A DNA stretch of 27,513 nucleotides from the NCBI RefSeq assembly GCF_003334385.1, contig NZ_QOWN01000057.1; one strand, 5' to 3'. The notes under the pieces were generated by a model. The model made no database searches, was not told the origin of the DNA, and was given only the letters and a program-made list of their open reading frames with translations. Shown piece after piece: positions 1-25,840 of this stretch (position 1 is its first letter; the number at the start of each line of letters is the position of its first letter). Source of the stretch: Escherichia coli (GTDB lineage: Bacteria; Pseudomonadota; Gammaproteobacteria; Enterobacterales; Enterobacteriaceae). A program made the position numbers and the translations under genes.

Positions 1-326
1 AGCGACATAATCTGAATCTGAGACAACATCTGGCAAGGCTGGGACGGAAGTTACTGTCGTTCTCAAAATCGGTGGAGCTGCATGACAAGGTCATCGGGCA
101 TTATCTGAACATAAAACACTATCAGTAAGTTGGAGTCATTACCCGACAGCGAGGTGTTTAGTGTGCCATGTCAGGCGAGAAATTCTATTGGATGAATCAA
201 GTCCAACTTACTCATTGTCAATTTCATGGTTGATTATTCGAAACGTGATGCTATTTCCAACATCAACGCTATAATTGCAGAATAATTGTAGATACATTTT
301 TGTATATACAATTAGGGATGGCAATT

Positions 327-614
327 ATGCCAATGGAGTTTGAATGGGATGAAAACAAGGCCAAAAGTAATCGGGTGAAACATGGCATCCGCTTTGAAGA
401 TGCGGTGTTATTGTTTGATGATCCACAACATTTGTCACAGCAAGAACGCATAGAAAACGGTGAGTATCGCTGGCAGACAATCGGCCTGGTTTACGGCATC
501 GTGGTTATTCTGGTTGCGCATACCATCCGTTTCGAAAGCGGAAATGAAATTATTCGAATCATCAGTGCACGAAAAGCAGATCGTAAAGAGAGGAATCGCT
601 ATGAGCATGGTTAA
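327..614 (+). CDS. BrnT-like (DUF497) type II toxin, putative ribonuclease
   Basis: Translation MPMEFEWDENKAKSNRVKHGIRFEDA...RIISARKADRKERNRYEHG fits the DUF497/BrnT pattern (FEWD..KA..N..KHG..FE.A, RIISAR.A). AGGGA sits 8 nt before the ATG at 327; the ORF track starts the frame at 300, so the start is ambiguous among ATGs at 318/327/333. Confidence 0.7.
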   Translation: MPMEFEWDENKAKSNRVKHGIRFEDAVLLFDDPQHLSQQERIENGEYRWQTIGLVYGIVVILVAHTIRFESGNEIIRIISARKADRKERNRYEHG

Positions 615-903
615 ACATAAACGAGGGACCTCCTCTACACTCGATGTGCAGCATGAGGCCGAACTGAAGGCGCTGGCGAATAAATCCGACGAAGATATTG
701 ATTACAGTGATATCCCACCTTCCAGCGATGAGCAATGGTCTAACGCCGAACGCGGTAAGTTTTATCGGCCATTGAAAACTCAGGCTTCGGTGCGTATTGA
801 TGCTGATGTGATGGAATGGTTGAAGCGACCAGGTAAAGGCTATCAAACTCGCCTGAACGCAATTTTACGTGAAGCGATGCTGCGCGATCAGAACAAAAAA
901 TAA
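601..903 (+). CDS. BrnA-like antitoxin (RHH/DUF4415-type)
   Basis: Translation MSMVKHKRG...SVRIDADVMEWLKRPGKGYQTRLNAILREAMLRDQNKK has the BrnA-type C-terminal motif. Its ATG overlaps the 3' end of the toxin gene by 14 nt (toxin-first order typical of brnTA). The track ORF starts at 460, but that upstream extension lies inside the toxin gene. Confidence 0.65.
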   Translation: MSMVKHKRGTSSTLDVQHEAELKALANKSDEDIDYSDIPPSSDEQWSNAERGKFYRPLKTQASVRIDADVMEWLKRPGKGYQTRLNAILREAMLRDQNKK

Positions 904-907
904 TTCA

Positions 908-925
908 GGCCGCCACATGGCGGCC
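908..925. terminator. GC-rich hairpin (ggccgcc-acat-ggcggcc) between convergent brnA and yjiA
   Basis: Perfect 7-bp inverted repeat directly after the brnA stop (901-903) and after the yjiA stop (937, minus strand). Confidence 0.4.
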
Positions 926-936
926 ATCATCCAAAA

Positions 937-1893
937 TTACTTCCTCAACCCCGCAAACGCTGCCCGAATCTCTTCCTCCGGCAACTGAATCCCGATAAAC
1001 ACCATCGTGCTATGCGGTTTTTCATCGCCCCACGGGCGGTCCCAGTCGGCGCTGTAGAGGCGTTGGACGCCCTGGAATAGCAGGCGGTTAGGTTCGCCGT
1101 CAATCCATAGCATCCCTTTGTAACGCAGTAGTTTATCCGCCGACTCCAGCAGCAGGTTTTCCATCACCCGGGAAACTTCGCTGATATCTACCGGGTAATC
1201 CAGTTCCACCACAATCGACGAAATATCGTTTTGTTTGTCCGCGATAAAGTGGAAACGCGGTTTGGTGCTGACGACGTTTTCTTCCAGCATAAAACCGTTG
1301 GTGTTGAACAGAAGGCCCAGGTCGATATCGCCGTGGGTAACGGTGTAGACCGGTGCGCGGGCGTTGATGCGCGCCAGGCGTTCACGCAGTTTCTCTGCTT
1401 CGCCTGCGACGTCGGTTTTCGTCAGCAGAATACGGTCGGCGTAGCCAACCTGGGACTGGGCGATGGTGAACTGGTTCATCTGCTCATCGGCATGTACCGC
1501 ATCCACCAGCGCAATCACGCCGTCCAGCAGGTAGCGCTGGCATAAAATCTCATGGGAGAAAAAGGTCTGAATAATCGGGCCGGGATCGGCCATGCCGGTG
1601 CATTCAATGACCAGACGGTCGAACTGAATATTGCCCTTGTCGAGATTATCCAGCAGGTCGAGTAGTGCGTCTTCCAGCTCGTTGGAGCGCGAACAGCAGA
1701 TGCAGCCGTTGGTCAGCGTTTTGATCTGCGTGGCGCGGTCGCCAATCAGTTGATCATCAACGGAGACTTCGCCGAATTCGTTTTCAATCACGGCAATCTT
1801 GTAGCCGTGTTGTTCGTTAAGAATATGGCGCAGCAGGGTGGTTTTGCCCGCGCCTAAAAAACCGGTGAGTAGGGTAACTGCAATCGGGTTCAT
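937..1893 (-). CDS. yjiA: P-loop GTPase YjiA (COG0523/CobW family)
   Basis: Walker A GFLGAGKTT close to the N-terminus. Start trimmed from the track ORF (1977) to the internal Met MNPIAVTLL..., giving 318 aa as I recall for K-12 YjiA. Confidence 0.9.
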   Translation of the reverse strand: MNPIAVTLLTGFLGAGKTTLLRHILNEQHGYKIAVIENEFGEVSVDDQLIGDRATQIKTLTNGCICCSRSNELEDALLDLLDNLDKGNIQFDRLVIECTGMADPGPIIQTFFSHEILCQRYLLDGVIALVDAVHADEQMNQFTIAQSQVGYADRILLTKTDVAGEAEKLRERLARINARAPVYTVTHGDIDLGLLFNTNGFMLEENVVSTKPRFHFIADKQNDISSIVVELDYPVDISEVSRVMENLLLESADKLLRYKGMLWIDGEPNRLLFQGVQRLYSADWDRPWGDEKPHSTMVFIGIQLPEEEIRAAFAGLRK

Positions 1894-15897: not shown

Positions 15898-15960
15898 AAC
15901 TCGCCCTTTGTCATAGACGTGCTGCGTATTGTTCAGATAATGAGAATCCATTTGTATCAT

Positions 15961-17913: not shown

Positions 17914-18702
17914 TCATTTCAGCGTACAATCGCCACATTGCTGCACATCCGGTAAGCGATAACGCTGGCAGCAAGTGCGGCGCACCAGCAGGCCGTCGCG
18001 CAGTACCACGGTACGCCAGAGTGGATTATCTTCACCGTTCGTGAGCGTTTTCTCAAAAAAGATGGCATGGCGCAGCGATTCAACCGTCGCCTCGCCGAGC
18101 AGTTGCTTCATCTCAGTGAGATACCAGTTGATCAAATAACCGGTATTACTCCAGATAAGTTTGCCGTTGATCTCTCCGGTCGCTTCTAGTGCCTGCACAA
18201 CCGGAACCAGCGCCTGGCTGATTAACGTTTCCATTCGCTGCTGCGGCGAATGTGGTGTTGCGTTTTTATCTTCACACACATCGACCCAGAAACAGGCGGC
18301 ACGGCCGGTTTCGTGAAACTCAGCATGGAAATGTTCCGGCGACACATCTAATGCTTTTTCCTGCGTCAGTAGCGCCAGCATTAATGGTGGCACCATCAGG
18401 CCGATATACCATTGTGCCCATAGTGAGATCAGCGGTTTGTTCTCGCGGATCATCGTTGGTTGGTTGCGATAGATATGATCGGAATAGACCTCGAGTAGAG
18501 AACTTAGCGCATTCGGTGATGACCATTGCGCCAGCGTCATGGCGTTAAGCGGAGCGGGTTCATCCAGGCGGATAAACTCCAGCAAATGTTCACGATGTTC
18601 GGCGATCGTCGCACGTACGGCTTGTGCAAGCCCAGCATCCTGTGGCTGGAGATGCGTTCGCCAGATGATATCTTCATAGAGCGGTGCGAAACGATAGGCC
18701 AT
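17914..18702 (-). CDS. fhuF: Ferric-siderophore reductase FhuF
   Basis: 262 aa with the C-terminal Cys cluster C-C-x10-C-x2-C (RRTCCQRYRLPDVQQCGDCTLK) typical of the FhuF 2Fe-2S motif. Confidence 0.9.
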   Translation of the reverse strand: MAYRFAPLYEDIIWRTHLQPQDAGLAQAVRATIAEHREHLLEFIRLDEPAPLNAMTLAQWSSPNALSSLLEVYSDHIYRNQPTMIRENKPLISLWAQWYIGLMVPPLMLALLTQEKALDVSPEHFHAEFHETGRAACFWVDVCEDKNATPHSPQQRMETLISQALVPVVQALEATGEINGKLIWSNTGYLINWYLTEMKQLLGEATVESLRHAIFFEKTLTNGEDNPLWRTVVLRDGLLVRRTCCQRYRLPDVQQCGDCTLK

Positions 18703-18711
18703 AACCGTGAT

Positions 18712-18832
18712 AGTAATCTAAATGATAATGATTGCTAATCCTAGCGATAGGTTTACCCGATAGCAAGGGATTTCTCTGGCTTGCAAATGATAAAAATTAT
18801 CATATGATATCGGTTATCATTATCAATGAAAG
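18712..18832. promoter_or_regulatory. Cluster of Fur-box-like sequences in the fhuF/yjjZ divergent promoter region
   Basis: aatGATAATGATtgctaatc, aaTGATAAaaATTATCAt and ggTTATCATTATCaatg resemble the Fur consensus GATAATGATAATCATTATC; fhuF is a known Fur-regulon member. Confidence 0.55.
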
Positions 18833-18842
18833 AGATGAAACC

Positions 18843-19079
18843 ATGTTGCAACGTACGCTGGGCAGTGGCTGGGGAGTGTTGCTGCCGGGATTGCTGATTG
18901 CAGGGCTGATGTATGCGGATTTATCGCCGGATCAGTGGCGGATTGTCATTCTGATGGGATTGATATTGACGCCGGTGATGCTGTATCACAAACAGTTACG
19001 GCATTACATTTTGCTACCATCGTGCCTGGCGCTTAGTGCTGGCATCATGCTGATGCTAATGAATTTGAATCAGGGATGA
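18843..19079 (+). CDS. yjjZ: YjjZ, small membrane protein
   Basis: Start trimmed from 18732 to MLQRTLGSGWGVLLPGLLIAG... (78 aa) to match K-12; hydrophobic. Confidence 0.75.
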   Translation: MLQRTLGSGWGVLLPGLLIAGLMYADLSPDQWRIVILMGLILTPVMLYHKQLRHYILLPSCLALSAGIMLMLMNLNQG

Positions 19080-19117
19080 AAAATCAAGGAAGAAACAAGA
19101 AAGGAAGTAAAGATAAT

Positions 19118-19204
19118 TGGTGCGAGGGGGGGGACTTGAACCCCCACGTCCGTAAGGACACTAACACCTGAAGCTAGCGCGTCTACCAATTCCGCCACCT
19201 TCGC
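19118..19204 (-). tRNA. tRNA-Leu (anticodon CAG), 87 nt including CCA
   Basis: The reverse complement reads GCGAAGGTGGCGGAATTGGTAGACGCGCTAGCTTCAGGTGTTAGTGTCCTTACGGACGTGGGGGTTCAAGTCCCCCCCCTCGCACCA: class II tRNA with a long variable arm and a CAG anticodon. Only one copy is present. Confidence 0.95.
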
Positions 19205-19339
19205 ATACCATCAATTCTTAAAAAGAATTGCTACCACGGAGGCGCATTCTAGTGGTTTTCAGCTTTTCGTCAATAGTTAATTATCGCCGGAGGTGTAATT
19301 GCTGGAAAAATGGCCATCAGCGGATTGTGGATAATTCGT

Positions 19340-19495
<156 letters not shown>

Positions 19496-19504
19496 GCGGG
19501 ATAC

Positions 19505-20536
19505 TTAACCTTTTTTCGCCTGGCGGGTCATAATGGCGCGATATACCTTGAAACGCCCGGTTTGCGCAATCACTTCATGGAAGCCAAATGTCTCATCCAG
19601 CACGTCCGGATAAGGCAGGAAGGCGTTCGCTACAATTCGCAGCTCGCCGCCACTATTAAGATGACGCACCGCGCCGCGAATCAGCGTTTGCGCCGCATCC
19701 AGGCTGGTTTGCATCCCATCGTGGAACGGCGGGTTGGAGATGATCATATCAAAACGACCTTTCACCTCGGAAAAGACGTTGCTGGCAAAGACTTCACCTT
19801 CAACACCGTTGGCCGCAAGTGTTGCGCGGCTGGCTTCTACCGCTGGCGCAGAGACATCGCACAAGGTGAGACGAATTTTCGGCGAATGGCGCGCAAAGGC
19901 AACTGAAAGCACACCCGCGCCACAGCCGACATCCAGCACTTTACCTTTCGTGTGCGGGGTTAACGTCGAGAGCAGCAACTGGCTACCGACATCCAGACCG
20001 TCGCGGCTAAACACGCCAGGCAGCGTTTTGACCGTCAGGCCATCGACGCTGTATTCGCCCCAGAATTTATCGGCATCAAATACCGGCTGTTTTTCCAGAC
20101 GACCAAAATAGAGGCCACAGCGACGAGCGCTGTCGACTTTATTCAACGGCGCATAATCTGCCAGCATCTGCTCGGCGCTGCGCACGCCGCTGCGGTTCTC
20201 GCCAACGACAAAAATATCTGTCCCCACTGGCAGCAGAGAAAGTAAATTCATCAACTGGAACTGGGCTTCCGGTTTGTTCTTCGGCCAGTAGTAAATCAGC
20301 GTATCGCAATCTGCGACGTCATCCACCGTGGCGACCAGACTGAAACGGGCGTTATCCCCCATCTGGCGGCTTAATACCTGCCAGTGGTGGAATTGCTGGG
20401 TATGAGCACGGCTGGCCGCGGTATCTAAACGCGCGGGCAGGTCATCCTGTAAGTCTCCGGCAAACAGAATACGGCTTTGTTCGAAATCATCACTGTGACG
20501 CAGCAAGACTTCACTTGCCGGGGTAAATGCAGACAT
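19505..20536 (-). CDS. rsmC: 16S rRNA m2G1207 methyltransferase
   Basis: 343 aa with a SAM-binding motif [11 protein letters not shown] and an NPPFH catalytic motif. Confidence 0.9.
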
Positions 20537-24052: not shown

Positions 24053-25840
24053 ATGAGACTTGAAAAACTAATTTTAAAGAATTTTCGTGGCTATCACGGT
24101 GAACATAGTATTGACATTAATTCACTAACTGCAATCGTTGGACGTAATGATGTTGGAAAAACAACTATCCTAGATGCGCTTGGAGTGTTTTTTGACCATA
24201 AATTATGTAAATATGATGCTGCCGATAAATGTGTTGATAGTTTAGATAATGATGACGTAGCAATTGGGTGTGTTTTTTCAGGGGTTGAAATACCTATTGT
24301 CTTAGATGCTTCATCTATAACTAATCTTGAAAAAGAATACTTATTAAATAATGATAAAAAGTTAGAGATATATAAGGTTTTTACTAAAGGTAAGGGAAAT
24401 GGTAGCATTCAAGCGAAATGTATGGCTCCATCAGTAAAAAGTGCAAAGTCTTTACTCGCTAAAAAAAATGAGGAGCTTAAAAGAATTGCTGAATCTATTG
24501 GTGTGGATGATGCAGACAAAAGAAGTAATGTTAGTTTAAGGCAAGAGATTTACAAGAAAATTGGAGATTTGAAACTTCATGAAAGCTTTGTTAAATTAAA
24601 TGCTGAGGAGGGTAAAGTAATTTGTGATAAAATATACGATAAACTCCCTCATTTTGCACTGTTTCGCGCAGATAGACCTAGCACTGATGAAGAATCAGAA
24701 GTACAAGACCCTATGAAGTCAGCTGTACAAACAGCATTGCAAAAAATTGATGTTCAACTTGAGTCCATTAAAGATAATGTAAAAAAACACGCAATTTCCG
24801 TAGCGAATAACACAATTAATCATTTGCATGATATATCTCCTAATCTTGCATCTGGATTAGTTCCAAAGTTTAAGGTGGAACCTAAGTGGGAAAATATTTT
24901 TAAACTGACACTAGAAGATGATAGAGGTATCGCTATAAATAAACGTGGCAGTGGCGTTAGACGTCTTGTCCTGATTAGCTTTTTTAAAGCAGAAGCAGAA
25001 AGATTGCAAAGTGAATTCCCAGATAAAGGTGTTATCTATGCTATCGAAGAACCTGAAACATCTCAACACCCCTCTAATCAGAGACTCCTTATTGAGGCTT
25101 TTCAAGAGTTAGCAAGTTCAGATAAATGCCAAGTATTAATCACCACTCACGTACCAGCACTCGTAGAAAAGATACCGACTGAGTCTTTACGCCATATAAC
25201 CAGAACTCTTGACAATGGTTTAGAAGTAAAAAATGGTGATGATGATGTTCTTAAGAATATAGCAAATGATCTAGGTGTATACCCCGACAGTAGGGCATCT
25301 GTTCTTGTGTGCGTTGAAGGTCCTAATGATATAAACTTTTTAAAAAATATCGGTAAGGTTTATCTTGATTATGGTGTTAAAAATGTTCCAGACATGATGA
25401 ATGATCCGCGTATAGTTTTTATTCCAATGGGGGGGCATACTCTCAAAGATTGGGTTAATAACAATTATTTGAAAGTTCTAAATAAACCAGAGGTTCATAT
25501 TTATGACAGAGATGTTGCAGTTCCTCCCCAGTATGAAAATGAATGTAATTCAGTAAATGCAAGGAAGGATGGCTCTATAGCATTTATGACCCAAAAAAGA
25601 GAAATGGAGAATTATTTACACCCTGATGCCATTCAGGCTGTTTTCGGTATTACTCTAACCATAGACGATATGACAGATGTTCCTTCCGTTGTATCTAAAT
25701 TAACAGCATTCAATGAAAGCAAAGCGAAGAAGAAACTTAATAAGTTCGCTACAGGTAAAATGAGCTATCAAATGCTCACTGCAAGCGATACAGAAAGAGA
25801 GACGTTATCATGGTTTAATGCTATATATGACAGATTATAA
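24053..25840 (+). CDS. OLD-family ATP-dependent endonuclease-like protein (N-terminal ABC/AAA ATPase plus C-terminal Toprim); candidate single-gene anti-phage / abortive-infection factor
   Basis: Walker A VGRNDVGKTT near the N-terminus; Walker B / D-loop VIYAIEEPETSQHPS; H-loop LITTHVP; C-terminal Toprim-like motifs VLVCVEGPND (conserved Glu) and VHIYDRD (DxD). Start placed at MRLEKLILKNFRGY, with GGGGAAG about 10 nt upstream, rather than the track start 23993. About 595 aa, close to the size I recall for P2 Old. The gene is markedly AT-rich. No UvrD-like helicase partner is adjacent. Confidence 0.8.
   Translation: MRLEKLILKNFRGYHGEHSIDINSLTAIVGRNDVGKTTILDALGVFFDHKLCKYDAADKCVDSLDNDDVAIGCVFSGVEIPIVLDASSITNLEKEYLLNNDKKLEIYKVFTKGKGNGSIQAKCMAPSVKSAKSLLAKKNEELKRIAESIGVDDADKRSNVSLRQEIYKKIGDLKLHESFVKLNAEEGKVICDKIYDKLPHFALFRADRPSTDEESEVQDPMKSAVQTALQKIDVQLESIKDNVKKHAISVANNTINHLHDISPNLASGLVPKFKVEPKWENIFKLTLEDDRGIAINKRGSGVRRLVLISFFKAEAERLQSEFPDKGVIYAIEEPETSQHPSNQRLLIEAFQELASSDKCQVLITTHVPALVEKIPTESLRHITRTLDNGLEVKNGDDDVLKNIANDLGVYPDSRASVLVCVEGPNDINFLKNIGKVYLDYGVKNVPDMMNDPRIVFIPMGGHTLKDWVNNNYLKVLNKPEVHIYDRDVAVPPQYENECNSVNARKDGSIAFMTQKREMENYLHPDAIQAVFGITLTIDDMTDVPSVVSKLTAFNESKAKKKLNKFATGKMSYQMLTASDTERETLSWFNAIYDRL

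Follow-up and report, generated by a model that had tools for sequence, protein, structure and literature searches.

The closest described system is the same locus in Escherichia coli K-12. Chen, Lewis, Shultzaberger, Schneider et al. scanned and footprinted the region between the divergent genes fhuF and yjjZ in 2007 (NAR 35:6762; PMC2189734). Their model placed three sites of 16.1, 20.8 and 22.3 bits in a strong cluster and two sites of 14.6 and 9.3 bits in a weak one. In DNase I experiments with 50 nM Fur, one region was fully protected and the other weakly (PMC2189734). The two footprints, fhuF1 and fhuF2, are separated by an unprotected gap, and protection spreads as the Fur concentration rises (secondary footprinting); a gel shift was also published for the K-12 allele (PMC2189734). 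The strong cluster is usually named the fhuF Fur box and serves in gel shifts and as a positive control of the Fur titration assay (FURTA), whose reporter is fhuF::lacZ (PMC3788343).

Both genes belong to the core Fur regulon, as determined by ChIP-exo in nine E. coli strains (PMC10164565) and likewise for strain CFT073 (PMC7157518). The sigma-70 promoter of yjjZ is silent in the wild type and active in delta-fur cells and in vitro (PMC10301672), and Salmonella yjjZ is iron- and Fur-regulated and derepressed by iron limitation (PMC8432900). In addition, OxyR represses fhuF under H2O2 (PMC8115020, PMC4207228), and RegulonDB holds four OxyR sites at fhuF.

Here we analysed a 27,513-nucleotide stretch of E. 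coli DNA (the window) for which three overlapping Fur-box-like sequences, shared by divergent fhuF and yjjZ, had been predicted from the letters alone. The Fur control of fhuF that this original prediction took as established is well documented by footprints (PMC2189734), ChIP-exo (PMC10164565) and the FURTA reporter (PMC3788343). The literature provides the evidence for Fur binding, for expression that depends on Fur and iron, and for the transcription starts; our own results are the sequence significance of the boxes, their mapping to the window and the comparison with related genera, in which the two arrays are separate. We conclude, with a probability of about 0.9, that the region holds the two known Fur operators, that the strong array represses yjjZ and the weak array fhuF, and that both are gene-specific and were juxtaposed through the absence of a GGDEF gene in Escherichia.

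Fur boxes of the fhuF-yjjZ region

In the window, fhuF (17914-18702, minus strand, 262 aa, siderophore-iron reductase) was identified from the list of open reading frames and the RefSeq annotation of near-identical genomes. Its divergent neighbour yjjZ (18843-19079, plus strand, 78 aa, DUF1435 protein) follows from RefSeq annotation and from orthologues in other genera detected by tblastn, and NCBIfam assigned no family to YjjZ. A 115-aa TTG-initiated open reading frame (18732-19079) was rejected as a mere upstream extension of the yjjZ frame, which by annotation and conservation begins with the ATG at 18843. The two genes are separated by an intergenic region of 140 bp (18703-18842). A 1-kb query around this region matched 5,426 of 5,426 complete E. 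coli genomes, and the annotations beneath the matches were fhuF, yjjZ and tRNA-Leu. An Rfam scan of 18400-19400 (E<=1) revealed no RNA element in the intergenic region; its matches, a tRNA and a sub-threshold REP-like element, were both located outside.

Aligned with K-12 MG1655, the intergenic region displayed six SNPs (18705, 18708, 18741, 18774, 18811 and 18841) and no indels. The published footprints, transcription starts and model predictions therefore carry over to the window, where positions correspond to NC_000913.3 coordinates minus 4,586,961 or NC_000913.2 coordinates minus 4,584,984. The high-affinity cluster, footprint fhuF1 (4603763-4603815 in NC_000913.2, PMC2189734), maps to 18779-18831. 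The low-affinity cluster, footprint fhuF2 (4603680-4603733 in NC_000913.2, PMC2189734), maps to 18696-18749 and contains boxes at 18718-18736 and 18724-18742. About 29-30 bp separate the two footprints.

We scored the boxes with a palindromic 19-bp Fur position weight matrix (PWM, 15 bits) trained on footprinted sites without fhuF (fepA-fes, fepB, entC, fepD-entS, fur, tonB, cir, sodA, fecA and fecI). The sequences came from six 50-kb K-12 stretches and the footprinted regions from Table 3 of Chen 2007 (PMC2189734). This matrix, which was seeded from the Fur consensus and rests on only 10 sites scoring 13.7-22.7 bits themselves, ranked 18806-18824 (18.8 bits) and 18783-18801 (18.2 bits) as the top two sites of the whole 27.5-kb window, above genomic background and within the training range. 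Outside the fhuF-yjjZ region, no position of the window exceeded 13.0 bits. Weaker overlapping sites were found at 18789-18807 (11.6 bits), 18800-18818 (9.1 bits), 18724-18742 (9.1 bits) and 18718-18736 (8.2 bits). The strong cluster hence comprises four overlapping sites of at least 9 bits with successive offsets of 6, 11 and 6 bp, and a 6-bp register of overlapping boxes is present in the pairs 18783/18789, 18800/18806 and 18718/18724.

Simpler models gave corresponding results. The 19-mer consensus GATAATGATAATCATTATC with up to three mismatches occurred once in the window, at 18806-18824, and in 0 of 100 shuffles. With up to four mismatches it occurred twice (18783-18801 and 18806-18824, both intergenic), versus ten matches in a 300-kb sample of K-12 DNA in which known Fur sites are included. 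The 7-1-7 model TGATAATNATTATCA matched 18788-18802 with one mismatch, and two such matches exist in the 300 kb of K-12 DNA. Within the 140 bp we counted seven GATAAT/ATTATC hexamers (up to one mismatch), where 1.9 are expected from the window average.

Fur-box-like sequences are thus located where they had been predicted, with PWM, consensus and 7-1-7 model in agreement. For the strong cluster, three is an approximately correct count of overlapping matches (three strong sites in the published model, four overlapping sites of at least 9 bits by PWM). The interval given for them, 18712-18832, captures this cluster, but also encloses the separate weaker pair at 18718-18742.

Since the intergenic region is AT-rich (66% versus 51% for the window) and the Fur consensus is itself AT-rich and -10-like, the matches might be read as a by-product of promoter DNA (-10-like, UP-like) without any specific role in Fur binding. 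Among 5,000 dinucleotide-preserving shuffles of the region, however, only 6 reached the observed maximum, and none reached the two-site sum or the count of sites of at least 8 bits. Likewise, none of the 775 AT-matched natural 140-bp windows attained the two-site sum of 37.0, the best value being 26.1 at fecI. Moreover, the boxes have changed less between genera than the sequence on either side, and binding has been demonstrated by footprints, gel shifts and ChIP-exo (PMC2189734, PMC10164565, PMC7157518). We therefore reject an origin by chance or AT-richness, which the published footprints already refute and to which we assign a negligible probability; the low scores relative to background that were named in advance as evidence against the prediction did not occur with either the shuffles or the AT-matched windows.

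In the K-12 background, 300 kb chosen to contain known Fur targets, eight positions scored at least 18 bits, and all but one were training sites or fell within the same known clusters. The remaining position is a 19.1-bit match, GATAATGCATATAATTTTA, in the metJ-metB intergenic region (48524-48542 of its 50-kb stretch). Either a genuine Fur site or a look-alike in AT-rich promoter sequence could account for this match.

Some further features of the window were recorded. The yjjP-yjjQ intergenic region contains a 13.0-bit match (15936-15954), and three matches of 10.6-12.3 bits fall within about 170 bp (25454-25619), apparently inside the 5' part of yjjU. Both stretches are AT-rich by eye, and these matches are probably due to chance. 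Between yjjZ and rsmC, the window has one copy of tRNA-Leu(CAG) (19118-19204, minus strand). The copy number of this tandem array varies from strain to strain, with three copies in K-12 (leuV, leuP, leuQ) and one or two in other E. coli genomes. From tRNA-Leu to rsmC (19205-19504), the window is about 101 bp longer than the otherwise closest strain, STK39-3-E (rsmC at 19505-20536 versus 19403-20434 in the STK39-3-E locus). The sub-threshold Rfam match mentioned above belongs to the REP-derived family naRNA4 and concerns especially 19345-19397 (36 bits versus a gathering score of 59.5). The extra 101 bp or so are probably a REP/BIME element insertion.

Position of the clusters relative to the promoters

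The published yjjZ transcription start (4,605,777 in NC_000913.3, PMC10301672) corresponds to window position 18816. A promoter scan independently found the hexamers TTGCAA (18781-18786) and TATGAT (18803-18808), and together with the published start these define a sigma-70 promoter at 18781-18816 on the plus strand. For fhuF, the published starts (4603717 and 4603716 in NC_000913.2, PMC2189734) correspond to 18733 and 18732. From these starts, we assign a putative fhuF promoter to 18732-18766 on the minus strand, comprising the likely -35 element TTGCTA (reverse complement of 18761-18766), a 17-bp spacer and the likely -10 element TAGGAT (reverse complement of 18738-18743).

Positions computed from the published starts place each cluster on a core promoter. 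With the yjjZ start as reference, the strong footprint extends from about -37 to +16 and its four boxes from -33 to +9, so that the -35 element, the -10 element and the start site of yjjZ are all covered by boxes of the strong cluster. Counted from the fhuF start, this cluster occupies -46 to -98, on the upstream side of the core promoter. For the weak footprint, the range with respect to fhuF is about -16 to +38, with the two boxes at -9 to +16; the weak cluster overlies the fhuF -10 element, the start site and the early transcribed region. Such an arrangement points to exclusion of RNA polymerase through occlusion of the promoters by Fur.

One of the SNPs falls in the strongest box and one in the presumed fhuF -10 element. 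At 18811, inside the strongest box, the window has a C, while a T is found in K-12 and in all further Escherichia loci that were sampled. According to the PWM, the box at 18806-18824 scores 18.8 bits with C18811 versus 21.7 bits with T, a loss of about 3 bits. The exact 53-bp sequence of the strong cluster was detected in 409 of the 5,426 complete genomes, and most of the others differ at one position, which, judging from K-12, would usually be 18811. C18811 is a minority allele, and the footprints cover the K-12 allele. At 18741, the window has a C where K-12 has an A, which turns the presumed fhuF -10 element from TATGAT into TAGGAT. Among the relatives sampled, TAGGAT is the commoner form and A18741 of K-12 is unusual.

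Separation of the two clusters in related genera

A single scan of reference genomes for FhuF returned 12 loci. Those from Escherichia (E. albertii, E. whittamii and cryptic clades) retain the two clusters as well as the 140-bp arrangement. In Citrobacter (four loci), S. enterica arizonae and K. grimontii, yjjZ is divergent from fhuF as well, and its start is about 1420-1445 bp away. A gene of 354 aa in the same orientation as fhuF lies between the two in Citrobacter, S. arizonae and Klebsiella. It encodes a membrane-anchored protein with a GGDEF diguanylate cyclase domain (TIGR00254, E = 3e-47) and occupies 324-1388 (plus strand) of one sampled locus and the same position in five further loci. 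Between fhuF and yjjZ, this gene was absent in all Escherichia sampled. Given its place beside a Fur-controlled yjjZ promoter, the GGDEF gene of those genera might itself be iron-regulated.

The two clusters part company where the genes do. In Citrobacter, S. arizonae and K. grimontii, the strong box GATATTGGTTATCATTATC (19.6-21.7 bits) precedes yjjZ by about 20 bp, and the weak cluster CTAAATGATAATGATT.. (8-14 bits) stays directly upstream of fhuF. The strong cluster adjoining yjjZ is conserved across all genera sampled, and the yjjZ -10 element TATGAT is invariant in the yjjZ-side alignment, including the genera other than Escherichia. The second strong box (18783-18801), which covers the yjjZ -35 element, scores below 10 bits outside Escherichia versus 18.2 bits here. 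Upstream of fhuF, AATCTAAATGATAAT is invariant and the next GATT nearly so in Escherichia, Citrobacter, Salmonella and Klebsiella; the presumed fhuF promoter elements are invariant as TAnnAT (-10) and TTGC (-35) in 14 sequences from four genera.

Alignments also allowed us to locate the approximate junction between the two sides. Homology on the fhuF side ends at about 18775 and homology on the yjjZ side begins at about 18781, which places the junction at 18776-18780. At this point, the other genera have about 1.28 kb with the GGDEF gene. By parsimony, this alignment suggests that the Escherichia lineage lost about 1.28 kb, whereby two independent promoter-operator modules would have been joined.

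Since each cluster stays with its own gene where the GGDEF gene intervenes, we favour two gene-specific operators over a single shared one. The region itself is physically shared by fhuF and yjjZ, as had been predicted, but its operators look gene-specific, with separate clusters where the genes are about 1.4 kb apart. A common fhuF/yjjZ operator made up of the three strong boxes is less likely; these boxes sit on the yjjZ promoter and at -46 to -98 from the fhuF start.

A different reading of the same region would make the strong cluster a truly shared operator, at which Fur nucleates and from which it spreads or loops to the weak cluster, so that both promoters depend on it. In favour of this reading, a mere 29 bp of the 140-bp intergenic region lies between the two footprints, the protected stretches lengthen as the Fur concentration is raised (PMC2189734), and in other divergent gene pairs of E. 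coli, such as fepD-entS, a single cluster serves a 110-bp intergenic region. However, the clusters are about 1.3 kb apart in three other genera, each of them kept beside its own gene, and the K-12 footprint has an unprotected gap between the two regions (PMC2189734). Furthermore, fhuF is a weak-affinity, easily titrated Fur target, which is unexpected if boxes of 19-22 bits controlled it. We therefore regard a shared operator as unlikely. Nevertheless, the strong cluster may add to fhuF repression, by spreading or through cooperativity over the gap, because Fur can extend from strong sites and the footprints are separated by only about 29 bp. Slightly less doubtful, yet still speculative, is the idea that the loss of the GGDEF gene brought the strong operator of yjjZ to positions -46 to -98 of fhuF, where it might now aid Fur loading on the weak operator and so shift the iron threshold of fhuF relative to Salmonella and Citrobacter. 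That the box over the yjjZ -35 element is strong only in Escherichia could belong to the same adjustment. If true, the loss of this gene would represent a small case of regulatory rewiring by deletion.

Control of fhuF at this site might also be exerted mainly by OxyR in response to peroxide, with ATAG repeats between the Fur clusters as the key operator. This is what the curated H2O2 repression of fhuF and its four RegulonDB OxyR sites would suggest. We scanned for the OxyR consensus of four ATAG-type elements with 10-bp spacing (ATAGnTnnnAnCTAT-N7-ATAGnTnnnAnCTAT), and the best match in the fhuF promoter, a candidate at 18725-18761, agreed at 13 of the 20 specified positions. This match is marginal, as 10 positions in the 27.5 kb score as high and the known ahpC site reaches 16 of 20. 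The motif CGATAGG-N6-CGATAGCAAG (18745-18767) lies between the Fur clusters and overlaps the presumed fhuF -35 element. Escherichia, Citrobacter and Salmonella keep this motif and Klebsiella does not; it is a candidate for the published OxyR site. In the literature, though, control by OxyR adds to that by Fur and does not replace it, and the boxes over yjjZ would be left unexplained. A dominant role of OxyR thus seems very improbable to us.

For two gene-specific operators, the best-supported mechanism is a conventional one. When iron is sufficient, Fe(II)-Fur dimers would fill the arrays of overlapping 19-bp boxes. On the strong array (18779-18831), they would lie over the yjjZ promoter (about -37 to +16) and keep RNA polymerase off. 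On the weak array (18696-18749), they would cover the fhuF -10 element, the start site and the early transcribed region, and fhuF would be repressed at a higher Fur-Fe threshold. Upon iron starvation, Fur would be released and both genes transcribed divergently. The distance of about 30 bp between the arrays would be particular to Escherichia and due to the missing GGDEF gene of the related genera. We infer that the two arrays differ in iron threshold and act independently in E. coli.

Comparison with known Fur operators

The Fur operators of fhuF and yjjZ are already published and constitute an ordinary regulatory region, and no open question is affected by our result. Its main value is that of a positive control, as the original prediction had put it: a textbook Fur operator was placed correctly from sequence alone, both published footprint regions fall on the window, and the assignments to E. 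coli, fhuF and yjjZ hold. The small addition is comparative. By position and evolutionary history, the so-called strong fhuF Fur box is the yjjZ operator, and the weak cluster close to the fhuF promoter is the ancestral operator of that gene. That fhuF's own operator is this weak cluster would explain why fhuF::lacZ is so sensitive a titration reporter.

Compared to fhuF1 and fhuF2 of K-12, the window presents the same locus with the same architecture, namely a strong three-site cluster and a weak two-site cluster, both footprinted, and differs by six intergenic SNPs. The fepA-fes, fepD-entS and fepB-entC regions of the enterobactin cluster are alike in that divergent iron-regulated genes flank a short AT-rich region with boxes over promoter elements. 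Their PWM scores are comparable (16.6-22.7 bits). These regions may differ from fhuF-yjjZ, which has two separate, unequal clusters, one per promoter, with separate evolutionary histories. The yjjZ promoters of Salmonella, Citrobacter and Klebsiella, finally, share the GATATTGGTTATCATTATC box and the TATGAT -10 element with that of the window, but their divergent neighbour is the GGDEF gene instead of fhuF.
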